Shown piece by piece: positions 3,779-58,363 of a DNA stretch of 64,000 nt. Source of the stretch: a virus (Duplodnaviria > Heunggongvirae > Uroviricota > Caudoviricetes); IMG/VR virus record IMGVR_UViG_3300015214_000028, positions 1-64,000 of that record; one strand, 5' to 3'. A program made the translations under genes and the position numbers. The notes under the pieces are model-generated. The model was not told the origin of the DNA and ran no database searches. It worked only from the letters and a program-made list of their open reading frames with translations. Numbering within the stretch: the stretch's first letter is position 1; each line of letters opens with the position of its first letter.

Positions 3779-4931
3779 CTTTTGATCCTGATGGTTTAGC
3801 TGCAGAGCCAGTAATATTGGCTGGAATTCTTAGTTTATCCGATTCTGGGGAAGGGTCTTTCGGATAACGCAACTCTAGACGCGCTTCATTGGGGGTGATT
3901 ACGCCAGTATTGACTAAGGTTCCTAAATAAGCAGCCTGAATATTAAGCTCTGGCCGTAGAGCTTCTGCACCCGAGGTATCCACTGAAATGTCATAGCCGA
4001 AGTACCTTTCAAAGGCACTAACAACTAATCTAGCCAGGGGTAGAATAGTTTCAACCCACATCAGCTTTTGATTTGGAGTAATATTGGCATTATTGCCTCC
4101 AAACAGTAGAATCGGCGGTACGCCAAGTGCAAGTAAAACAGATTCATCTATTGAACGAACTGAGCCTTCAAAATCTAACTCTTTGAATTTGCCTTCTCCA
4201 AGAGCTTTAACTTCTAGACCTCCGTCTAGAATAAGTGGTCGTTTTCCGCCACGTTTCGGGTTATACTCCCGAACCCAGTTCTCAATTAAACGATCCTTGA
4301 TCTTCTGTCCTAGAACGCTAGGAGACTGGATCACTAAGCCCGGGACCGCGTTATTCTTAAAGAAATTACGCTGGAACTCTAACATTTCTCCTCTAATATT
4401 AATTAGTTCAAGAAACGTCTTAGCTCTACTAGTCCCTCTAAAGATACTGTCCGAACCGTTGTCGCTTACGGGAATGATTTCCTCAGGATTAAATCGAATT
4501 GTGGAATTGTATTCGTAATAAGCAACAAGTGTTTTCGGATCAGTAACTACTTTAACATTCACCGCTGGTAGATGGTACATAAAAGCACCATCAAAGTGAA
4601 TATAGGCGTTACCTTCTAGTATTAAATCTAGATAGATAAGCCTTTTAAATCTTTCAATATCTTGATAAGGATTAGGACTAAATTGAATTAAAGTTTCTAA
4701 TTTAGCTTTCCTAATTGACACTACGCCCACACCATTCAGTTTACTAGTAACGTCGAATCCCAGGCTAGAAGCACCGTTAACAATTAAGTCAACACCGCGT
4801 CGAACAACTGGAATCTCGTTATAGGCTGAAACATGGCTAGCATAGCGGCGCGCGGTCGAGTACACTTCCCCGCTATCGCGGGAAATGACAGATTGCGCGG
4901 GGTTTAATTTAGTTCGCAACCATTGCAGCAT
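3762..4931 (-). CDS. portal protein (HK97-family size, 389 aa)
   Basis: Size and position between terminase/HNH and the protease-capsid gene; portal-like composition. Confidence 0.6.
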   Translation of the reverse strand: MLQWLRTKLNPAQSVISRDSGEVYSTARRYASHVSAYNEIPVVRRGVDLIVNGASSLGFDVTSKLNGVGVVSIRKAKLETLIQFSPNPYQDIERFKRLIYLDLILEGNAYIHFDGAFMYHLPAVNVKVVTDPKTLVAYYEYNSTIRFNPEEIIPVSDNGSDSIFRGTSRAKTFLELINIRGEMLEFQRNFFKNNAVPGLVIQSPSVLGQKIKDRLIENWVREYNPKRGGKRPLILDGGLEVKALGEGKFKELDFEGSVRSIDESVLLALGVPPILLFGGNNANITPNQKLMWVETILPLARLVVSAFERYFGYDISVDTSGAEALRPELNIQAAYLGTLVNTGVITPNEARLELRYPKDPSPESDKLRIPANITGSAAKPSGSKDDTND

Positions 4932-6622: not shown

Positions 6623-7058
6623 CTAAAAGCTTTCCCATCAATTCCCCGTAATTAGTTCCTACAAAGGGATTATTAATTTGAATATTTGTCTGAGTTTTAG
6701 GGCCTGCTGCCAGTTTGGTAGCTATGTTCATTTCATCCATTTTCATTTTGTGCACTAAAGCTAAAATATCCATAATATCTTTAGTAGATCCAATATCTGC
6801 TTCCTGTAATTCCTCCAGCTTTTTCTCAACTATACTGTCTACAATTTCTGCAAACTTGAAACGATTTCTATAACCAGACTCAAAATAAATTCTATCAATA
6901 TAGCTCTTGACTTCTGGTAAGTCTAGATATTGATTCACCTGTTCCGGGTGAATGCCTAGTTCTCTAGCGGTCTGTTCCACGCTTCTAGTAAGGAGATACG
7001 TATTAGCGATTTCTAGCTCTTCTGGGGAAATAGGCACAATAGTATTTGGATTTGCCAT
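6606..7058 (-). CDS. terS: terminase small subunit (HTH DNA-binding)
   Basis: ARELGIHPEQV HTH-like motif immediately upstream of terL. Likely start is the ATG at 7058 (MANPNT); the track's TTG at 7094 lies inside the promoter -35. Confidence 0.55.
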   Translation of the reverse strand: MANPNTIVPISPEELEIANTYLLTRSVEQTARELGIHPEQVNQYLDLPEVKSYIDRIYFESGYRNRFKFAEIVDSIVEKKLEELQEADIGSTKDIMDILALVHKMKMDEMNIATKLAAGPKTQTNIQINNPFVGTNYGELMGKLLDVENK

Positions 7059-7065
7059 ATTTTGA

Positions 7066-7094
7066 AGTATAACACTGTCAATAAAAAATTTCAA
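7066..7094 (-). promoter_or_regulatory. sigma70-like promoter for terS/terL (-35 TTGAAA, 17-bp spacer, -10 TATACT) giving a leaderless or near-leaderless transcript
   Basis: Reverse complement reads TTGAAA ttttttattgacagtgt TATACT tcaaaat ATG. Confidence 0.5.
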
Positions 7095-7129
7095 CTACTT
7101 TTTTCGTACTGGGCCCGTTGTTGCTTCTT

Positions 7130-7222
7130 GAGTGCTCTGAGCCCCGGGTTACCTTCCAATATTTTCTTAAAGTTGTACGCGGGGCCACCAATTACTCAGC
7201 GTCGCTGAGCCCCGGGTTACTC
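7130..7222. repeat. two direct ~65-bp repeats, each containing CTGAGCCCCGGGTTAC and AATTTTCTTAAAGTTGTACGCGGGG
   Basis: Read directly at 7130-7160 and 7200-7260. The core is the same 17-mer that recurs at 12187-14181. Confidence 0.8.
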
Positions 7223-7286
7223 TGTAAATTTTCTTAAAGTTGTACGCGGGGGAGGGCGGTGCGGCGGTGCCGATAGAGCGAGTCTA

Positions 7287-7322
7287 TCAACCGCCCATGC
7301 CCGATAGGGTGAGCCTATCGGG
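7287..7322. repeat. perfect 15-bp-stem inverted repeat (CCCATGCCCGATAGG gtgagc CCTATCGGGCATGGG) just downstream of the minus-strand two-gene operon
   Basis: Read directly. Preceded by a second palindrome GATAGAGCGAGTCTATC. Confidence 0.8.
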
Positions 7323-7337
7323 CATGGGTCTTGCCTG

Positions 7338-7634
7338 CTACACCTGGCGCGCAGGCGCGAAGTTCGCGAGGTTCAGCACGTCCAATCGATCATGTTCGGG
7401 CCGGGCAAGTGCATCGACCAAACGAGCGAGGAATTCCGTCGCGCTGATGGTAACGTGCCCGCCAGACACAGGAAAATCTACTTGCACGCTAACGCGCTCG
7501 ATCGCGCCTGCGCGCTCTACTGCGCGATTCAATTGCCTGACAAACGAGCGCGCAGCGATGAAGGTCATACCCTGCCCGAACGGGCGCGGCTGGCCTACGG
7601 GCTTTCCGGCCGCGAAGATGGTAATCTGTGTCAT
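7338..7634 (-). CDS. hypothetical protein (98 aa) in a ~60% GC patch
   Basis: Track ORF; follows the upstream ORF with a 5-nt gap. Confidence 0.45.
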   Translation of the reverse strand: MTQITIFAAGKPVGQPRPFGQGMTFIAARSFVRQLNRAVERAGAIERVSVQVDFPVSGGHVTISATEFLARLVDALARPEHDRLDVLNLANFAPARQV

Positions 7635-7639
7635 GCTGG

Positions 7640-7918
7640 TTACTCCATCGAATAATCGGCACAGTAGCGCAGCGCGCTAATGACCCGTTCCACAATCTTG
7701 GCCTCCCTGACTGCCTTTACCGCACCCGCATACTCGCCTGCGCTAGCATCCGTGGACATGCTCAGCAGGGTTTCTTCATGAAAGCGCACGTCGGACTCAG
7801 CCTTTGCTTGGGTAGAGTACAGAAGGTCTTCTACGCGCTGGCGCGCGGCGTTCAGTTCCTCATAAGCGACTTCACCCAGACCGAACATATGAGCTACGAA
7901 TGTGACAGTTGCCTTTTG
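7640..7918 (-). CDS. hypothetical protein (~93 aa; start ATG at 7918 with RBS GGAGGTAGG)
   Basis: The reverse complement of 7921-7935 gives GGTGGAGGTAGGAAA before the ATG. The track's longer 170-aa version runs back into AT-rich non-coding DNA. Confidence 0.45.
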   Translation of the reverse strand, partial: QKATVTFVAHMFGLGEVAYEELNAARQRVEDLLYSTQAKAESDVRFHEETLLSMSTDASAGEYAGAVKAVREAKIVERVISALRYCADYSME

Positions 7919-8357
7919 CATTTTCCTACCTCCACCCAATGCAGTGAAACCGGTCGGTTTCCTCGTTTGCTGCATCAGAGACTTAACTATAGCAAAGCAT
8001 TTTAACCCTGCAAAGCGGAAAATTGTAACAAATTGTAACTGTTGTTTTTTCACCACACGCGCCCGATGGGCACTCTTTCCCACTAATAACATTATACACG
8101 CTAGAAAAACCGTGTCAAGCAAAATATTTTTGCTCGTTCCGAAAATGAACATGTCTGATTTTGCCTAGTCTGTTTTACTGCCCTGGTCAAGCATTATTTT
8201 CTGCCTAGCATGTAACGATGTTATCGTCAAGACATATCGCGCCGAAAACACAAAACCTGGTAGCTGTCAAGTATTCCGCACTAAAATGCAAGGGTATTGC
8301 ATAGCATCTAAAAAGTATGCTAGACTATGGGTTATTGCATTAAATAGGCTATTCACC

Positions 8358-8741: not shown

Positions 8742-9217
8742 AAATTGCAATTTTCGATCTGGACGAAACCGTTATTAATTCGTCGCATCGCACGCCGAAT
8801 AATCCCGATGGCACCCTTAACCTTGATGCTTACATTGCAAGGCATACACCGGAAAACGTGAGGAAAGACAAGGTTTTGCCGCTTGCCGAAACTATGCGCA
8901 GACTGTATAATATGGGCTGGCAGATTTTTGTTCTGACTGCTAGGGATATGAAACCTTGCGACTATGAATACCTCGCAAGGCATAATCTACCTTATCATCG
9001 CATTTTCTCGCGCGATCAAGCAAAGCCTGAACATTATAGGCTTTCCGATGGCGAATATAAAAAGCGCTGGATTCAAAAGCTGCTAAATCTTCGCCAATAC
9101 CGGAGCGCTTATGTTATAATGTTTGACGATAGCAGCAAGGTTAAATCTGCGCTGCGTCGATTCTTTCCGGTACTTTGCGCGCATAAGGTAAATGCGAAAA
9201 TCGGAACGGTTAAATAG
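8738..9217 (+). CDS. HAD-superfamily phosphatase (5'-deoxynucleotidase or PNK-phosphatase-like; resembles T5 dmp)
   Basis: N-terminal FDLDETV (DxDxT motif); 159 aa. Confidence 0.6.
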   Translation: MKIAIFDLDETVINSSHRTPNNPDGTLNLDAYIARHTPENVRKDKVLPLAETMRRLYNMGWQIFVLTARDMKPCDYEYLARHNLPYHRIFSRDQAKPEHYRLSDGEYKKRWIQKLLNLRQYRSAYVIMFDDSSKVKSALRRFFPVLCAHKVNAKIGTVK

Positions 9218-9283
9218 CACTACCGTTAAAACGTGCTATAATGGCTCTTCCTGATTGACGATAAACGAACTGAGGGAAACAAA

Positions 9284-10849
9284 ATGATCGAAGCTAAAAT
9301 TGCACTGCGCATTCGCGGCGCTTTCCGGTTGCGCAAACCCGAAAGCATTGATTCTGCTATTGCCGACGTTGCCGAGGAAATTGGCGCGGATGTTAACGCG
9401 GTTCGGGAAGTTTACAATACCGAACGTGCACGGTTGGACGCGGCACGGATCGAGCGGATTCGGAAGGCGGAAAGCAAACCCGTTTCGGGCGGCGCGTTGC
9501 GCCCGGATTATTCTGCGGAAGATTACCCTGGTCCAATCATCGTCACCGCCGCGCAAAATAACACGGAAGTGGCAGAAGCTTTCTGGGATAACCTTGTCGG
9601 GTATGCGTCCAGCATTGGGGCTAAAATCATTGTCGCACCGATTCTGTATAATAAATCGGCATGGAATCAGCCCGATGACATGACTGGACAAGATATTTAC
9701 TTTGACCCCAAGGTCAAACCCTATATGCGCGATGATCGGTTTACCGTTCACGGTGTAGCGGTATTGGCTAACGCTCATGTTTTGCCGACGTCCAAGAATC
9801 CGTTGTCGGGTTTTGAATCGGCCACGGGTGCTGGACAGTCTATCGTCATCCCGGCCAGTAAAATCTCTCTTAAAACGATGCCACGCCTTAAGGGTGAACC
9901 GCTGAAAATTGTTCAATCTACGGGCACGGTTACGGTATGCAACTATGTCCAGCGCAAGGCCGGAACGGTATCCGAGTTGGAGCACAATTACGGGTTTACC
10001 GTGATTGAATCCGGCGGAAAAGTTCGATCGGTAGAATGTATGAATCCTGATGCCGGCGGGTTTTTTGATTTTGACGGGGAGCATGTAAACGAACAAGGCA
10101 TTGAGTACCCTGATAACCCGGCTGCGCTGGTTTTTGGAGATATTCACGCCGAAAAGCTGCCGCTGGAACGGCTTAATGCAATCTCGGCACTAGCGCGAAA
10201 GGTCAATCCGTGCAATGTCATTTTCCACGATATTCTAGACTTTTCGAGTCGGAACCATCACAATCGGGAGTCTAGTCTCTTCCGCTTTGTGGCGGATTCT
10301 ACGGGCCAGTCAGTGGAAAGCGATATTGAAAAGGTCGCTAACGTGCTAGACTGTTTCCCAAGCTATGCTCCTATTGTGGTTGACTCCAACCATGACAGAG
10401 CGCTTGAACGTTGGCTGGATGAGGCAGATTATCGCGAGGACTCACAAAACGCGATTTTCTTTTTGGAATTGCAGCTTGCACGATACCGTGCGGCAAACTG
10501 TGGACAAGAGCCTATTAACCTGCTAAAATACGCTTTGACCAAGCGTTTCGGCAGGGATTTTAATGCTACTTTCCTGAAGCCTGATGAAAGCTGCAAGGTA
10601 GAAGGTATTGAATGCGGCAATCATGGCGACCGTGGCCCTAACGGCGCTAGGGGAAGTTTGCAAGCATTCCGGGCAATTGGCGAATCTATGGTGATCGGAC
10701 ACTCCCATAGTCCGGGCATTGCCGGCAAAGTGTATCAGGTCGGGGTTTCGGGCAGCCTTGAAATGGGGTACAATGTTGGACCGTCGTCTTGGGCGCATGC
10801 TCACTGTATCATTTTCGCCAATGGACAACGGCAAATGATTTTCGAGTAA
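9284..10849 (+). CDS. large protein with a C-terminal calcineurin-like (Mre11-type) metallophosphoesterase domain; resembles T5 pre-early A1
   Basis: Motifs VFGDIHAE, HDILD, DSNHD, ECGNHGDRG, VIGHSHSP; 521 aa. Confidence 0.55.
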   Translation: MIEAKIALRIRGAFRLRKPESIDSAIADVAEEIGADVNAVREVYNTERARLDAARIERIRKAESKPVSGGALRPDYSAEDYPGPIIVTAAQNNTEVAEAFWDNLVGYASSIGAKIIVAPILYNKSAWNQPDDMTGQDIYFDPKVKPYMRDDRFTVHGVAVLANAHVLPTSKNPLSGFESATGAGQSIVIPASKISLKTMPRLKGEPLKIVQSTGTVTVCNYVQRKAGTVSELEHNYGFTVIESGGKVRSVECMNPDAGGFFDFDGEHVNEQGIEYPDNPAALVFGDIHAEKLPLERLNAISALARKVNPCNVIFHDILDFSSRNHHNRESSLFRFVADSTGQSVESDIEKVANVLDCFPSYAPIVVDSNHDRALERWLDEADYREDSQNAIFFLELQLARYRAANCGQEPINLLKYALTKRFGRDFNATFLKPDESCKVEGIECGNHGDRGPNGARGSLQAFRAIGESMVIGHSHSPGIAGKVYQVGVSGSLEMGYNVGPSSWAHAHCIIFANGQRQMIFE

Positions 10850-10963
10850 AAGTGGAACGGGGTGATTGACTCATCCCAGTCACTAGGTTATACTTCTTTC
10901 ATCGGTTCAGCGAATAGCGCGACGTTGAACCGATACCCTAAACCGCGCTAAAAGGGCTTTATC

Positions 10964-11308
10964 ATGAGCAAAGAAAAAGTGGCAGCGTATTCAATCGAGC
11001 AAACTTCGGAACTGGTCGAGGCTTACAAAGCCGACCCGACTCAAGAGACTGTTGCGATTTTTGCGGAACGGTTCGGAAAATCTGCCCGGTCGGTTATCGC
11101 GAAGCTTACTCGGGAAGGCGTGTATATCAAAAAGACTTACACCAGCAAAACGGGTGAACCTGTTATCAAAAAGGATGACATTGCCGACAAGATCGGTGCG
11201 CTTGTCGGGCTGGCGGATTCCGAAGCTGATTCGCTTGCGAAAGCTAATAAATCCGCGCTGAAGAAAATTTATGCACGGCTTACCGGATCGGGCGCGGATT
11301 CCGAATAA
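10964..11308 (+). CDS. small HTH-motif protein (A2-like); member of a paralogous family
   Basis: Motif ARSVIAKLTREGVYIKK is shared with 15894..16238, 37469..37828 and the three repeats in 40736..41472. Confidence 0.5.
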   Translation: MSKEKVAAYSIEQTSELVEAYKADPTQETVAIFAERFGKSARSVIAKLTREGVYIKKTYTSKTGEPVIKKDDIADKIGALVGLADSEADSLAKANKSALKKIYARLTGSGADSE

Positions 11309-11751: not shown

Positions 11752-11983
11752 AAATGATTCTCATTTGCTCGCGCCGATTTTACACCTGGTTGGCCAGCAC
11801 GTCAAGCCCGGGTACTCTAAACGAGAATGATTCTCATTCAGGCGCCGATTTTACACTACACTAGAACACTTGTCAAGCCGTGTTACAATTAACACGGGGT
11901 GTAGCATATGGGGCAAACTGGTACGCTTTTTGCTTTCGTTAAACGCGAACGATTCTCATTCTCAAACGCGAACGATTCTCATT
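11752..11983. repeat. four operator-like palindromes (A)AATGATTCTCATT(T/C), two followed by GCGCCGATTTTACAC
   Basis: Copies at about 11752-11766, 11825-11839, 11948-11960 and 11971-11983. Confidence 0.75.
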
Positions 11984-12020
11984 CTCATTTCTTTTTGCCA
12001 AAATACCCGAAGGGTATTTT

Positions 12021-12184: not shown

Positions 12185-12610
12185 ATAACCCGGGGTGCAG
12201 CGATCATAGCAATCATAGCAATCCTAGCAATCGCGGCAACCACAGCAACCACAGCAAGCCTCACACTAAAGCAGCCCTAGCAACTTCCCGTAGCCCTCAC
12301 AGTAGCCCAAGCCGCTAAAGACTTTACGCCCCGGGCTACTCTATGAGCCCTCTAAGCCCGCTAAAACCTCTGAGCCCCGGGTTAAAAAATAGCCCGGGGT
12401 GTAGCGATTGATTCAATGCCCCAAATCTAAACAGTAACCCGGGGCTCAGCGATTTTAGTAAGCTAAAAAATATCCCAGACTAAAGAAGTAGCCCGGGGCT
12501 CAACGATTTTAGCAAGCTAAATGCACTCAAAGAACTAAAAAGTAACCCGGGGTTCAGCAATTGAACCGGCTTCAGCAATTGAACCGATCTTTGAGCCCCG
12601 GGTTACTTTG
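12185..12610. repeat. cluster of at least eight copies, in both orientations, of a 17-25-bp element GTAACCCGGGG(C/T)(T/G)(C/T)AGC(G/A)ATT, plus tandem 9-mers (TAGCAATC / CAACCACAG) at 12196-12262
   Basis: Copies near 12187, 12337, 12369, 12390, 12434, 12488, 12542 and 12591. Confidence 0.85.
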
Positions 12611-12960
12611 TGAAGGTGACTAAAAATTATTTTTGGCCAAAAAATTGAATTTTAAATTGTATTACGCAGGCGTTTTTTGCCGACTTTATATGGTAATCAA
12701 TAAATTAATTGATTTAAAACTCAGTAATTGAAAAAGAACTCTTAGCTTAAAAAAGGGGGGGATAAATTGTCCAGTAACAACAACGGAGCAAAAAATTTCA
12801 GCGCTAAATTTCAAAAAATAACGAAAATTTTTTTAAAAATAGTCGAAAAAAGCTGAAAAAACTTTGAAATTTGAATTAATTAAACTAAAAAGGCAGTAGT
12901 CTAATTTGAAATAAGTTAATTTAAAAAAGAGACTAGTCTGAAAAATACCCCCTGTCTAAT
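12611..12960. other. extremely AT-rich non-coding tract (candidate DNA-unwinding element or spacer) with no ORF above 60 aa
   Basis: Long A/T runs, e.g. aaaaattatttttggccaaaaaattgaattttaaattg. Confidence 0.6.
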
Positions 12961-19367: not shown

Positions 19368-19664
19368 ATGACTAACATCACTATCAACGGCGTCGAGTAC
19401 GCCCCCGTCAATCGCGTCACCGGCACGCGCGCAGTCGTTGTTGTTGACCGAGGCTGGATCTTTGCCGGCGACGTGACCCGCGAGAATGGCCGTATCCGAC
19501 TCAGCCGTGCGGTACACGTGTTCCGCTGGGAGTCCATCGGGTTCGCAAAGATGATTGAGACTGAACAAGCCGATCTGCGGCCAATCGCCGACGTTGACAT
19601 GCCGGCCGATGCGGAGATTTTCTGCGTGCCTGTTCACGAGGGATGGGGTCTTAAAAATGACTAA
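19368..19664 (+). CDS. hypothetical protein; first gene of the high-GC island
   Basis: RBS AAGGAGA precedes the ATG at 19368 (MTNITINGVEY...). GC above 60%. Confidence 0.45.
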   Translation: MTNITINGVEYAPVNRVTGTRAVVVVDRGWIFAGDVTRENGRIRLSRAVHVFRWESIGFAKMIETEQADLRPIADVDMPADAEIFCVPVHEGWGLKND

Positions 19665-19956
19665 CCCAATCATGGGGCCGATTGGTTACGGCTACAGCAA
19701 CGGCTACGGCTACGGCTACAGCTACAGCTACAGCTACGGCTACGGCTACGGTGACGGTGACGGTGACGGCAACGGCTACGGATACGGATACGGCGACGGC
19801 AACGGCTACGGTGACGGCAACGGCTACGGCTACGGATACGGCGACGGCAACGGCTACGGCGACGGCTACGGCTACGGCAACGGCAACGGCAGCGGCTACG
19901 GCTACGGCGACGGCTACGGCACAATCAACTCCACGTCGCGGAGGCGGAGGACGTGA
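19657..19956 (+). CDS. Gly-Tyr/Gly-Asp/Gly-Asn dipeptide-repeat protein (~100 aa; (GY)n(GD)n(GN)n), encoded by a (GGCTAC)n hexanucleotide array
   Basis: ATG at 19657. Translation MTNPIMGPIGYGYSNGYGYGYSYSYSYGYGYGDGDGDGNGYGYGYGDGNG...GTINSTSRRRRT, stop at 19954-19956. Confidence 0.5.
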   Translation: MTNPIMGPIGYGYSNGYGYGYSYSYSYGYGYGDGDGDGNGYGYGYGDGNGYGDGNGYGYGYGDGNGYGDGYGYGNGNGSGYGYGDGYGTINSTSRRRRT

Positions 19957-20351
19957 TCCGCGACGAACTGCAGGCTCTTGCAGACGAGCTCGAATCGAAT
20001 CTGTATCACCGTGCCGCCGCTGTCCTGCGGCAAATTGCAGATGCGAAACCGGTTGCATGGCGCTGGATGTATAAGGGAAAGCCTGAGCCTTACGCTCTTG
20101 GAGGAAGCCTCTGTTTTGACGGTACCGGCCCCGATGCTGATATCGAGGCACGAGGAGCAGCAGCCGAACATCCTCGCACAGTACAGAGGCTCTACGCCCT
20201 ACCCCCTGCACTCCGCATGCCGGAGCCGATGACGAGAAGCGAAATCAGCGACTACGCACGAGTGATGGTGAAGGACAATAGGTCGGTAGATTGGCTGGTT
20301 ATGCAGATCGAGGCCGAAACCCTTCACCGAGTGAAGGAGATGAACGAATGA
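19953..20351 (+). CDS. hypothetical protein (132 aa; GTG start overlaps the upstream stop)
   Basis: Track ORF in the high-GC island. Confidence 0.4.
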   Translation: MIRDELQALADELESNLYHRAAAVLRQIADAKPVAWRWMYKGKPEPYALGGSLCFDGTGPDADIEARGAAAEHPRTVQRLYALPPALRMPEPMTRSEISDYARVMVKDNRSVDWLVMQIEAETLHRVKEMNE

Positions 20352-24671: not shown

Positions 24672-25183
24672 AAACATTCCTTGTAGCAGACACGCACTTT
24701 GGTCACCAAGGTGTTTGTAGGTTTCTTAGAGAGGACGGCTCCAAGCTTCGTCCATGGGATAACTATGCAGATATGGATCGGGAGCTTGTTGCTAGATGGA
24801 ACGCTAAAGTAGGGCCTAAAGATAAGGTATATCACCTGGGCGATGTTCTTATAAACCGTAGGGCTTTTGGTGTTTTGAATGAGCTTAATGGTGATAAGGT
24901 ACTAATACGTGGTAACCATGACATCTTTAAAGACGCCGAGTATACTCCATTCTTTAGGTCTATACGTGGGTCTCATGTGTTAAATAACATGTTGTTAACT
25001 CATATACCTGTTCACCCAGACAGTATGGGCAGGTTTACAGTTAATCTTCATGGGCACTTGCACTATCGTAGTGTTATGCTAGGAGACACGCCCGACCCTA
25101 GGTACCTATGTCTATCAGTGGAGCATACTGATTATGCTCCAATAGATTTTAACGAAGTACTTTCTAGAGTAGCTCAGCGGTAG
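24668..25183 (+). CDS. calcineurin-like metallophosphoesterase
   Basis: Motifs ADTHFGHQG, GDVLINR, IRGNHD, GHLHYR. The 3' end overlaps tRNA-Asn. Confidence 0.6.
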   Translation: MKTFLVADTHFGHQGVCRFLREDGSKLRPWDNYADMDRELVARWNAKVGPKDKVYHLGDVLINRRAFGVLNELNGDKVLIRGNHDIFKDAEYTPFFRSIRGSHVLNNMLLTHIPVHPDSMGRFTVNLHGHLHYRSVMLGDTPDPRYLCLSVEHTDYAPIDFNEVLSRVAQR

Positions 25184-25237
25184 AGCAGTTGGCTGTTACC
25201 CAATTGGTCCTAGGTTCGATACCTAGCTCTAGAGCCA
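25163..25237 (+). tRNA. tRNA-Asn(GTT)
   Basis: Acceptor TCTAGAG/CTCTAGA; D arm AGCTCAGCGGTAGAGCA; anticodon loop CTGTTAC; T loop TTCGATA; encoded CCA. Confidence 0.75.
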
Positions 25238-25312
25238 GGGGGATTAGTGATAATGGGAGCACAGGGGTTTTGCATACCTTTAGTGGGAGTTCAATTCTCC
25301 CATCCTCCACCA
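25238..25312 (+). tRNA. tRNA-Ala(TGC)
   Basis: G3:U70 alanine identity pair; anticodon loop TTTGCAT; T arm GGGAG-TTCAATT-CTCCC; encoded CCA. Confidence 0.65.
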
Positions 25313-25320
25313 AGTTTTAA

Positions 25321-25395
25321 GCACGATTCGTCTATCGGTTAGGACTCAAGGTTTTCATCCTTGCAAGAGGGGTTCGACTCCCCTATCGTGTGCCA
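25321..25395 (+). tRNA. tRNA-Glu(TTC)
   Basis: Anticodon stem CAAGG/CCTTG with loop TTTTCAT; T arm AGGGG-TTCGACT-CCCCT; encoded CCA. Confidence 0.7.
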
Positions 25396-25459
25396 ATTTT
25401 AGTTTTAGGATAGATACAGCAAATTTTACTTATATGGAAGTAACCAAAACTATCCTGTC

Positions 25460-25488
25460 TTGATTTTGTTTGATTAGTGCTGTATAAT
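25460..25488 (+). promoter_or_regulatory. sigma70 promoter TTGATT-N17-TATAAT ahead of the tRNA-Gly/Ile pair
   Basis: Read directly. Confidence 0.6.
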
Positions 25489-25500
25489 GTTTATATCGGA

Positions 25501-25569
25501 TGGGGAATCGCCAAGATGGTTAAGGCATTGGGTTTTGATCCCGACAGTCGAATCCTTCTTCCCTTGCCA
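25501..25569 (+). ncRNA. tRNA-like leader or degenerate tRNA (acceptor, D arm and a TTG anticodon arm recognisable, no T arm)
   Basis: GCC-aagatggttaa-GGC D arm and TTGGG-ttttgat-CCCGA anticodon-like arm ending in TTGCCA, but the 3' part has no foldable T stem. Confidence 0.3.
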
Positions 25570-25578
25570 AAATATTTT

Positions 25579-25654
25579 GCGGATATAGCTCAATTGGTAG
25601 AGCTTCTGCCTTCCAAGCAGACTGTTGTCGGTTCGAGTCCGACTATCCGCTCCA
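25579..25654 (+). tRNA. tRNA-Gly(TCC)
   Basis: GCGGATA/TATCCGC acceptor; loop CTTCCAA; T arm GTCGG-TTCGAGT-CCGAC; encoded CCA. Confidence 0.8.
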
Positions 25655-25661
25655 ACTTTAC

Positions 25662-25736
25662 TCCCGATTAGCTCAGAGGTAGAGCAGTGTTTTGATAAAG
25701 CACTGGTCGATGGTTCGAGTCCATCATCGGGTACCA
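25662..25736 (+). tRNA. tRNA-Ile(GAT)
   Basis: D arm GCTCAGAGGTAGAGC; loop TTGATAA; T arm GATGG-TTCGAGT-CCATC; encoded CCA. The 1:72 pair is T:T. Confidence 0.7.
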
Positions 25737-26075
25737 AATTTAGAGTATACTACCCCAACGGATGGAAAGGAACTACACCTCCCCTTCTTAGTAGGGAAAA
25801 CTCTAAATCTTCTGGGGTCTTGGCCAGACTTTAGAATAATCGACTGTGCGATGAGAGGCTTTAATCTCTCGGGGTACGGCAGTACAGGAACCGTAACCTG
25901 CTATAATAATGATTCCTTTCACTTTTAGGAGCTTATTACTAAGTCTCCTTTTTCAAGATAACTAGACGGACTGTGCTGCCCATAGCGGCACGTGTTAACA
26001 AGTTCGGTGGCGTCTGGCAACCTGCAAAAACTGTATATGCCAGTATACAGGAATGTATCTAGTTGTCTTGAAAAA

Positions 26076-26167
26076 GGAGAGATCCCATAATCGGTATTGG
26101 AGCGGATTGCTAATCCGTCGGCCTGCTAAAAACAGACTTGTGGGTTCGAGTCCCACTCTCTCCACCA
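26076..26167 (+). tRNA. tRNA-Ser(GCT), type II with a long variable arm
   Basis: GGAGAGA/TCTCTCC acceptor; loop TTGCTAA; T arm GTGGG-TTCGAGT-CCCAC; encoded CCA. Confidence 0.7.
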
Positions 26168-26172
26168 TAATT

Positions 26173-57787: not shown

Positions 57788-58363
57788 CTATTTAACACCC
57801 AAAAATCTTTCAGGGTATAAAAGATACTCAGCTTCTAAGTTTCTTCTACGTACTAAACCCGGGAGAATTTTTCCTCCCCCAAATTTCCATCTTAAGCATT
57901 CTTTAGCAGAAGCTTCCCAATTTTTTTCTAGCAGTCTTTTTCTAAATGTAGAGCCTGCAAAAGCAGTAGCCCCTAAATTAAAAACAAAATCAGTTACCGC
58001 TGCTAGTCTAATAGGATCTTCCTTTAGTACTGGGCAAAGTCGTATAGTGTCACTCAAATAATCTGGAAGTATAGCTACTAAACGTCTATCTGCTTCTTCT
58101 CTAGTAATTGGAGGCACAGACATTGAGGAGACTCGAATACCCCACCCTTGAGTGGGGTATCCTGCTGGACATATATAAGGATATATAAGACCGTCTTTAC
58201 CTACTTTATGCAGCCCCTCAAATTCTTGTACTAAAGGAATTAATGCATAAGGCACTCCATTCGGGTAGCTAAGCTCTTGAGATTGAGGTTGAGGTTGAGG
58301 TTGAGGTTGAGGTTGAGATTGGGAGGACTTTTCTAAAATAGACACTAACCACTTCCACATCAC
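57788..58363 (-). CDS. endolysin, GH24 (T4-lysozyme-like) with an N-terminal (QP)n linker
   Basis: EFEGLHKVGKDGLIYPYICPAGYPTQGWG catalytic motif; SQSQPQPQPQPQPQSQ encoded by (GGTTGA)n at 58270-58316. Confidence 0.65.
   Translation of the reverse strand: MMWKWLVSILEKSSQSQPQPQPQPQPQSQELSYPNGVPYALIPLVQEFEGLHKVGKDGLIYPYICPAGYPTQGWGIRVSSMSVPPITREEADRRLVAILPDYLSDTIRLCPVLKEDPIRLAAVTDFVFNLGATAFAGSTFRKRLLEKNWEASAKECLRWKFGGGKILPGLVRRRNLEAEYLLYPERFLGVK

Follow-up and report, generated by a model that had tools for sequence, protein, structure and literature searches.

A hypervariable Gly-Tyr dipeptide-repeat gene of tailed phages and its translationally coupled partner, a predicted Sm-like protein

Positions 1 to 64,000 of the IMG/VR virus record IMGVR_UViG_3300015214_000028 (hereafter the window) derive from a T5-like tailed phage with a genome of ~40% GC, and contain a short gene composed mostly of a hexanucleotide array (hereafter the repeat gene). 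Judged by its codon usage, the array is a protein-coding gene under codon-level purifying selection in the Gly-Tyr frame, and it is almost certain from comparison of related loci that this gene and the one immediately upstream (hereafter the partner gene) constitute a conserved, translationally coupled pair. An earlier note on this DNA had stated that nothing comparable is established in phages, which agrees with the literature: full-text searches found no paper on Gly-Tyr repeat proteins in phages or on two protein families discussed below, DUF6948 and DUF7666. The statement does not extend to the databases, which hold thousands of examples, including gp38 of the Eggerthella phage PMBT5. The pair thus appears undescribed. 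What is new is that the pair is split, co-translated, specific to phages and abundant, and that its dipeptide array is hypervariable, the Sm-like fold and the Tyr/Gly low complexity being individually familiar.

The product of the repeat gene consists of the segment MTNPIMGPIG, 79 residues in which G or S alternates with Y, D, N or S, and the tail TINSTSRRRRT (C-terminal sequence GTINSTSRRRRT; coordinates in Table 1); its composition is 37 G, 23 Y, 9 N, 8 D, 7 S and 4 R. Tandem Repeats Finder reports 39.0 copies of a 6-nucleotide (nt) period at 19687-19920 with 85% matches, and the 15-mer unit GGCTACGGCTACGGC matches 31 times with up to two mismatches, all in 19684-19920, against 0.08 matches expected from shuffles. 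The earlier note's proposal of a protein-coding gene with a start codon and a basic tail, situated in a high-GC operon, is borne out by the open reading frame (ORF), by codon selection and by the local GC content of ~0.60, with some corrections of detail: the product has 99 rather than 100 amino acids (aa), the hexamer units number ~39 rather than ~45, and the Y, D and N units are interspersed instead of following one another in (YG)n, (DG)n and (NG)n blocks. Ser (AGC) replaces Gly at five positions of the array. The plausible ribosome-binding site that had been proposed comes down to a single weak Shine-Dalgarno-like candidate, GGGG, 8 nt upstream of the ATG, with nothing else before the start codon.

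Codon statistics were compiled from 2,085 dipeptide units, selected as G-X, in 64 unique homologous genes from related loci. By virtue of this selection, hexamer positions 1-2 are G in all 2,085 units. At the four-fold degenerate third base of the Gly codon, C has a frequency of.876 and the three alternatives are equally common (T.045, A.040, G.039); at the two-fold degenerate third base of the NAC codon, the frequencies are C.855, T.121 and A plus G.024, the non-C bases being almost solely the synonymous T. Position X is occupied by Y (.49), D (.20), N (.16), S (.07), T (.04) and Lys (.005), with neither Glu nor Gln; GAA/GAG and AAA/AAG are one step from GAC and AAC, yet Glu is absent and Lys this rare, and likewise none of the 64 genes has an in-frame stop, though TAA and TAG are one step from TAC. 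In the locus L003, whose flanks have only 0.41 GC, the same protein is spelled GGT-TAC. A peptide search with the window's repeat protein returned many G-[YDNS] repeat proteins, several with a similar tail, such as P0001 (...GTVSTRSRRKS) and P0009 (...GTITTRTRRR).

Two other ORFs cross the array, and both are by-products of the repeat: an antisense (VA)n frame (19651-20211), already and correctly set aside as an artefact in the earlier note, and an (AT)n frame in +1 (19682-20074). The +1 (Ala-Thr)n frame was rejected as the true gene: C, the preferred third base elsewhere, is nearly absent from its four-fold site (0.8%), and in L003 the same frame reads (VT)n. A functional RNA structure was likewise ruled out as the role of the array, the transcript of which was searched for unusual structure with none seen (z -0.07).

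The array length is hypervariable. Among 41 locus pairs with partner genes at least 95% identical, the repeat genes are identical in 8 and differ in length in 30, although short-read assembly may exaggerate this variation and assembly artefacts are possible; identical partners accompany repeat proteins of 114 aa (L022) and 80 aa (L024), of 84, 82 and 70 aa, and of 127 and 121 aa. All of the length variants between near-identical phages remain in frame. Contigs from IMG/VR and metagenomes that end within the array include L010, L015, L021, L048, L051, L055, L057, L065, L068 and L080, among others. Because the array breaks short-read assemblies, phage genomes that carry it will be systematically fragmented.

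Such variation between phages with 95-100% identical partner genes (30 of the 41 pairs unequal), together with the many metagenome contigs that stop within the array, is what would be expected of the alternative offered in the earlier note, a non-coding contingency microsatellite in which a slippage-prone DNA tract lies in an operon and the ORF is incidental. Against this alternative, a 6-nt unit is unable to shift the frame, so slippage never switches the repeat gene off: the 64 unique homologues, from 52 to 171 aa, are all open in the same frame with their termini kept, and no on/off switching by frameshift is found. The third-position patterns are those of amino-acid-level selection, with Glu, Gln, Lys and stop codons essentially absent although each lies a single mutation from a codon for Asp, His, Asn or Tyr; the GGT codons of L003 preserve the protein while turning the +1 (AT)n into (VT)n; and the RNA has no special structure. 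The microsatellite reading is therefore rejected, and we give it practically no credence. The earlier note had also held that hypervariable repeat number combined with no translation evidence would favour a non-coding tract; repeat-length polymorphism is indeed pronounced between near-identical phages, but in a gene under coding selection, and so hypervariability as a ground for refutation would have misled.

Within the array, Tyr runs of increasing length occur 342, 151, 66, 21, 12, 5... times in the 64 homologues, a geometric series as expected for a random copolymer with ~49% Tyr. As far as these statistics reach, selection acts on the composition and reading frame of the array, and residue order is random-like. 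The mean homologue has ~17 Tyr, 8 acidic and 5 basic residues, compared with 23 Tyr, 8 Asp and 4 Arg in the window protein, and the acidic and amide residues tolerated are the short, turn-forming Asp and Asn, never Glu or Gln. All 23 Tyr of the window protein lie in [G/S]-Y-[G/S] triplets, and its repeat region contains no aliphatic or Gln residues, which gives it a prion-like, FUS-type composition with which prion-like or phase-separating behaviour would be compatible. Searches of Pfam, PHROGs, PADLOC and NCBIfam with the repeat protein yielded only sub-threshold low-complexity matches (TrAA12-like, serine-rich protein, keratin head).

This composition could also be that of an ordered beta-rich material, whether silk-like, amyloid-like or a beta-solenoid, with (YG)n strands, Asp-Gly and Asn-Gly turns, and the partner as an anti-aggregation chaperone. 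Alternation of Gly with residues bearing side chains, as in silk fibroin, favours sheets; of the acidic and amide residues only the short, turn-forming Asp and Asn occur, to the exclusion of Glu and Gln; and there are weak compositional matches to sulfur-globule protein and keratin-head models. We consider such a material quite unlikely, since the geometric strand lengths lack a preferred period and the array length varies freely, which is unusual for a defined fold, and since the protein has neither a signal peptide nor a link to a virion module. The sulfur globule proteins SgpA/B (PF17228) and the Gly/Tyr-rich antimicrobial peptides of nematodes and arthropods have a similar Gly/Tyr-rich repetitive composition, but they are secreted with signal peptides, whereas the segment MTNPIMGPIG that opens the window protein is not one; PF17228 is not matched by the window protein at E-values up to 0.1, and only one distant relative matches it, below threshold. 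The likeness is one of convergent composition, not homology. Calcium binding by the GDGDGNG stretches is only a thought.

Unlike the array, the termini of the repeat protein are conserved. Most of the 64 unique homologues begin with M..RPVG or PIG (MTDTMRPVG in L009), and their tails define the motif GT[VIC]xxxxR.RR; with both termini and a predominance of G-X units, the window protein belongs to this subfamily. Other subfamilies, found at loci seeded from repeat DNA, end differently. Across the subfamily, the Arg codons of the tail usually double as the Shine-Dalgarno sequence of the next gene; in the window they contain GGAGG at 19940-19944 and again at 19946-19950, ahead of the next gene's GTG at 19953, and can serve as its candidate Shine-Dalgarno sequence. 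The possibility that the tail is a mere by-product of this signal was rejected as its sole cause: where the next gene's Shine-Dalgarno sequence comes after the stop codon (L058, L061-L063, L076), the basic tail is kept, with CGN codons, so the tail is selected as a peptide too.

The second member of the pair is the partner gene, missed in the earlier note, the stop codon of which is overlapped by 8 nt by the start of the repeat gene in the window; among the 64 homologous repeat genes the overlap is 4 nt in 38 and 1 nt in 17. No promoter-like or plus-strand terminator-like sites were found between the two genes. Searches with the single partner sequence and with a profile returned 2,946 and 3,740 homologues, respectively (193 clusters at 50% identity), none of them named or assigned a Pfam domain in the homologue-search listings, and the protein is ~80% identical across many of its closest relatives. 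The Gly-Tyr repeat gene comes next after the partner in every context read that extends far enough, including L003 and L005-L009. A script flagged a repeat gene downstream of the partner at 82 of 88 loci (80 of the loci from IMG/VR); of the six others, four are on contigs cut off in, or just past, the beginning of the repeat, and in two the uninterrupted runs are shorter. Complete repeat ORFs were obtained from 71 partner loci. In GTDB genomes, the repeat gene follows the partner at 12 of 13 loci, one of them in a Novosphingobium isolate, and the thirteenth is cut by a contig end.

The same pair is present in PMBT5, the one cultured carrier found; its gp37 has 33% identity to the partner and its gp38 is a Gly-Tyr repeat gene (MANYGYGNGYGNGYG...GCGYGDGYG...). 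The annotation of gp38 as an 'adsorption protein' is unsupported, because the paper describing PMBT5 contains nothing on gp37, gp38 or adsorption. In the reverse direction, an exact 24-mer of repeat DNA located 119 loci in IMG/VR, of which 21 are cut upstream; a partner or DUF6948 gene lies immediately upstream of the repeat at 83 of the 98 that could be scored. Thus the association holds both ways. The window conforms to the pattern, having a same-strand DRGWIFAGD/DUF6948-like gene of ~95 aa just upstream of the repeat gene with overlapping stop and start. A conserved third gene was considered and rejected, the genes further downstream being heterogeneous between loci.

Several loci depart from the simple two-gene arrangement. 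P0329 joins a short repeat segment and a partner domain in one ORF, and P0241, P0243, P0391 and P0384 are tandem partner domains, such two-domain versions being an indirect hint that the partner may form a ring oligomer. Two Gly-Tyr repeat genes stand in tandem in L018 (at ~4644) and L053, and L019 (~3999-4854) has a partner, a repeat gene and a second partner. A distinct Gly-Tyr repeat family, bounded by the conserved ends MKYPKG...GAYPYPLVTR, occurs at L199, L237 and L288, and no partner could be detected upstream of it.

The pair might instead serve anti-defence or host takeover as a decoy, the polymer soaking up or blocking a host protease, kinase, nucleotidyl-transferase or immune sensor and varying in an arms race. 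It has an early-region or moron-like position within an apparently horizontally acquired GC island, its array diversifies fast beside an invariant neighbour, and it is found in phages of very different hosts. The variation nevertheless looks undirected, as if a fixed composition were being reshuffled neutrally; no PADLOC family is matched and no specific defence system is linked to the pair; and the strictness of the pairing, with a partner so highly conserved, points to a housekeeping-like role in the virus. On balance a decoy is unlikely, if worth keeping in mind.

Alignment and modelling indicate that the partner is a remote relative of DUF6948. The Pfam family DUF6948 (PF22253) is weakly matched by 7 of 58 diverse partner homologues, the window partner itself falling below the Pfam threshold; profile-profile alignment of partner and DUF6948 with hhalign gives an E-value of 2.8e-5 and a probability of 74%, and the partner model retrieves DUF6948 proteins in the viral structure library BFVD. 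True DUF6948 genes are themselves followed by a Gly-Tyr repeat gene at 79 of 82 IMG/VR loci (two are cut and one is negative); P0012 and P0084 are examples of this arrangement. In most cases the repeat proteins of DUF6948 systems extend at the C-terminus into a domain of ~120 aa with a weak likeness to DUF7666; the window repeat protein has no such domain. In P0007, DUF7666 is fused N-terminally to Gly-Tyr repeats, and L209 has a DUF7666-repeat fusion followed by a further domain. A tblastn search of the phage collection with DUF6948 found nothing.

An Sm-like fold is predicted for the partner. The AlphaFold model built on an alignment of 71 sequences has a mean predicted local distance difference test (pLDDT) score of 75.1 and a predicted template modelling score of 0.57, compared with a pLDDT of 45.8 for an earlier AlphaFold2 model from 23 near-identical sequences; it comprises five main strands, the third of which is followed by a single helix. 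Its structural matches are Sm/LSm folds alone, the best being a cyanophage Sm-like protein. At the sequence level, neither LSM nor Hfq families appear among the Pfam matches of 58 partner homologues at E-values up to 1, the Sm1 and Sm2 motifs are not found, hhalign of the partner with Escherichia coli Hfq gives a probability of 0.4%, and searches of PDB sequences with the partner and DUF6948 profiles returned no match. Since sequence comparison connects the partner with neither Sm nor Hfq, what is claimed is an Sm-like fold, not that the partner belongs to the Sm family. Reports of phage LSm-like proteins exist, for T4-type phages in PMC12152347 and also in PMC3710371.

The predicted barrel also bears on the proposal that the repeat protein is the precursor of a ribosomally made, post-translationally modified peptide, for instance with triceptide-like cyclophanes on Y-G-D or Y-G-N triads and the partner as a recognition protein or chaperone. 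Conserved ends around a variable core and a small conserved companion gene are in keeping with such a precursor, and the relative P0012 weakly matches the GrrA/OscA1 cyclophane precursor family TIGR04260 (19.3 bits, below the cutoff of 31). The window protein, however, has no match to TIGR04260; no radical S-adenosylmethionine enzyme candidate was found in 984 ORF segments of at least 200 aa from the window and L001-L185, where all 11 CxxxCxxC matches are spurious and none is in the window; the Pfam annotation of eight contexts contains no maturase; and the partner models as an Sm-like barrel rather than a PqqD-like winged helix. A modified peptide is accordingly very unlikely.

The explanation that we favour, tentatively and with confidence somewhat short of an even chance, is that the pair encodes a co-translated Sm-like oligomer and its Tyr/Gly low-complexity 'tail', which act on nucleic acid or in assemblies. 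Because the reading frames overlap, termination-reinitiation coupling would produce the two proteins in a fixed ratio. The partner would fold as an Sm/LSm-like small beta-barrel and oligomerise, and the repeat protein would be its separately encoded, multivalent tail, in which Tyr residues act as stickers, Gly, Asn, Asp and Ser as spacers, and the Arg-rich end either binds nucleic acid or pairs with Tyr. Together they may self-associate and gain avidity on RNA or single-stranded DNA in the early or replication phase of infection. The array could expand and contract rapidly without loss of function, because selection is on composition and frame and not on residue order. The parts of this explanation differ in strength. 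That the two proteins form a physical complex is rather probable; an Sm-like role of the partner on nucleic acid is a reasonable possibility, if short of probable; and self-association or condensate formation by the repeat product is more doubtful.

As a working analogy, the closest system is the Hfq of Acinetobacter, in which C-terminal (GGFGGQ)n repeats are functionally required and repeat number matters for RNA regulation (PMC11617691). Both systems combine an Sm-fold protein, predicted in the phage case, with a glycine/aromatic low-complexity segment of short repeats. In Acinetobacter the segment is on the same chain, with Phe and Gln and an acidic tip, whereas in the phage pair it is a separate, coupled polypeptide of Gly-Tyr/Asp/Asn units with a basic tip, and the phage partner has no sequence similarity to Hfq. 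The second-closest analogy is with eukaryotic Sm/LSm proteins that have RG or Q/N-rich tails: SmB, SmD1, SmD3 and LSm4 carry RG repeats, and the Q/N-rich tail of LSm4 acts in P-body assembly. They too couple an Sm fold to a dipeptide-repeat or prion-like tail for higher-order particles, but their tails are Arg-based and encoded in the same gene as a domain with Sm1/Sm2 motifs, whereas the phage pair uses Tyr/Asp/Asn and two genes and its partner lacks Sm1/Sm2. The RG dipeptides of Sm proteins are mentioned in PMC3710371.

The repeat protein also resembles the FUS-type [G/S]Y[G/S] domains and the YG domain of PEX13, described in PMC12173945 as forming a meshwork, in having Tyr within [G/S]-Y-[G/S] and an Arg-rich segment on the same chain; by analogy, Tyr-Arg sticker chemistry is possible. 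It differs from FUS and PEX13 in its much higher Tyr density (23%), strict alternation with Gly, lack of Gln, abundance of Asp, length of only ~100 aa and encoding by a bacterial virus. In its boldest form, which we regard as improbable as it stands, the favoured explanation would make the pair a minimal viral builder of a nucleic-acid-centred assembly, in which an Sm-like ring and a sticker-and-spacer polymer, with valency tuned by in-frame repeat change, would be the counterpart, in a prokaryotic virus, of an LSm4/Edc3-type granule scaffold and, in the early phase of infection, would serve to organise RNA or replication intermediates or to sequester them.

If the explanation is correct, this two-gene module resides in thousands of environmental phages and, among cultured ones, in at least one that infects a human gut bacterium, DUF6948 and many 'hypothetical' phage genes gain a function, and a new kind of early phage function is at hand. 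The repeat proteins would be among the simplest natural low-complexity polymers, with ~39% Gly and 19-23% Tyr in random order and selection on composition only, and would offer a very small natural test bed for sticker-and-spacer rules. Whatever the function, the strict pairing of the two genes in both directions offers a definite lead that can be tested.

Table 1. Coordinates of the repeat gene, its partner and neighbouring features in the window
Feature	Start	End	Strand	Description
High-GC island	19350	21750		~0.60 GC versus 0.41 in the rest of the window; bounds approximate
Partner gene	19368	19664	+	98 aa; motifs VVVVDRGWIFAGDV and HVFRW; predicted Sm/LSm-like small beta-barrel; remote DUF6948 relative
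Repeat gene	19657	19956	+	ATG at 19657, TGA stop at 19954-19956; Gly-Tyr/Asp/Asn dipeptide-repeat protein, 99 aa
N-terminal non-repeat segment	19657	19686	+	MTNPIMGPIG; fits family motif M..(R)P[VI]G
Hexanucleotide array	19684	19920	+	(GGC/AGC)-(TAC/GAC/AAC/AGC), ~39 units; Tandem Repeats Finder and pattern scan
C-terminal tail and stop	19921	19956	+	TINSTSRRRRT; family motif GT[VIC]xxxxR.RR
ORF132	19953	20351	+	132 aa; KPVAWRW ('PVAW') motif; GTGA overlap with repeat-gene stop
DHH/DHHA1 phosphoesterase gene	20348	21202	+	phrog_4771 (E 2.4e-102), Pfam DHHA1; ATGA overlap with ORF132; outside the conserved pair

Four genes of the high-GC island (the partner gene, the repeat gene, ORF132 and the DHH phosphoesterase gene) are chained by overlapping stops and starts. 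ORF132 is translationally coupled to the repeat gene and lies outside the conserved pair; in the metagenome contig L001 (23-472), a Gly-Tyr repeat protein lacks its stop codon and is joined, in the same frame, to a related PVAW domain. The only DNA-level relatives of the DHH/DHHA1 gene are in phiCbK-like phages of Caulobacter and in Brevundimonas phages, at 65-68% identity, and DNA searches of the phage collection with the cassette, a 24-kb stretch of the window and the island returned only distant matches to this gene. Acquisition of the whole GC island from a phage of a high-GC host fits these relatives. GC is also raised at 7001-8000 (0.54) and 9001-11000 (0.49-0.50), compared with 0.41, and these are possibly other acquired segments. 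In related contexts, the pair lies among early and replication genes, including those for DNA polymerase A, a PD-(D/E)XK nuclease, an SNF2 helicase, SSB and a DnaC-like loader. The window itself encodes an A1-like DNA transfer protein, DNA polymerase A, a DnaB-like helicase, an SbcC-like protein, ribonucleotide reductase, the central tail fibre J and 15 tRNAs.

The tRNA cluster (25163-33256) includes Tyr-GTA, Asn-GTT, Asp-GTC and Ser-GCT. These tRNAs read TAC, AAC, GAC and AGC, which together account for 45 of the 99 codons of the repeat gene, and the phage Gly tRNA (TCC) misses GGC; the match is probably coincidental for the tRNA set of a T5-like phage. A 'sensor' role related to queuosine-tRNA or anticodon nuclease, suggested by the NAC form of the X codons, was dropped with nothing supporting it. 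An ORF of 456 aa at 31510-32880, assigned to phrog_850 'RNA-binding protein' (E 1.9e-121), adjoins the tRNA cluster.

Other repeats occur in the window. Downstream of the A1-like DNA-transfer gene (9284-10849), a region with no large ORF holds a cluster of direct repeats at 11941-11987 (23 nt, two copies), 12198-12257 (9 nt, 6.7 copies), 12427-12556 (54 nt, 2.4 copies) and 12868-12939 (37 nt, two copies), which could be a regulatory or injection-stop type region of a T5-like phage. Positions 1-1460 contain dense 9-nt-based repeats (CCTGTAGGA, ACCTTGAAT and similar) that encode collagen-like Gly-X-Y triplets on the minus strand; the gene involved is probably one for a collagen-like tail fibre or decoration protein, cut by the left end of the window. 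A second dipeptide-repeat tract, shorter than that of the repeat gene, lies at 58277-58321 within an ORF on the minus strand (57788-58363), where a (TTGAGG)7.5 hexamer array with 94% matches would give Pro-Gln dipeptides on the coding strand.

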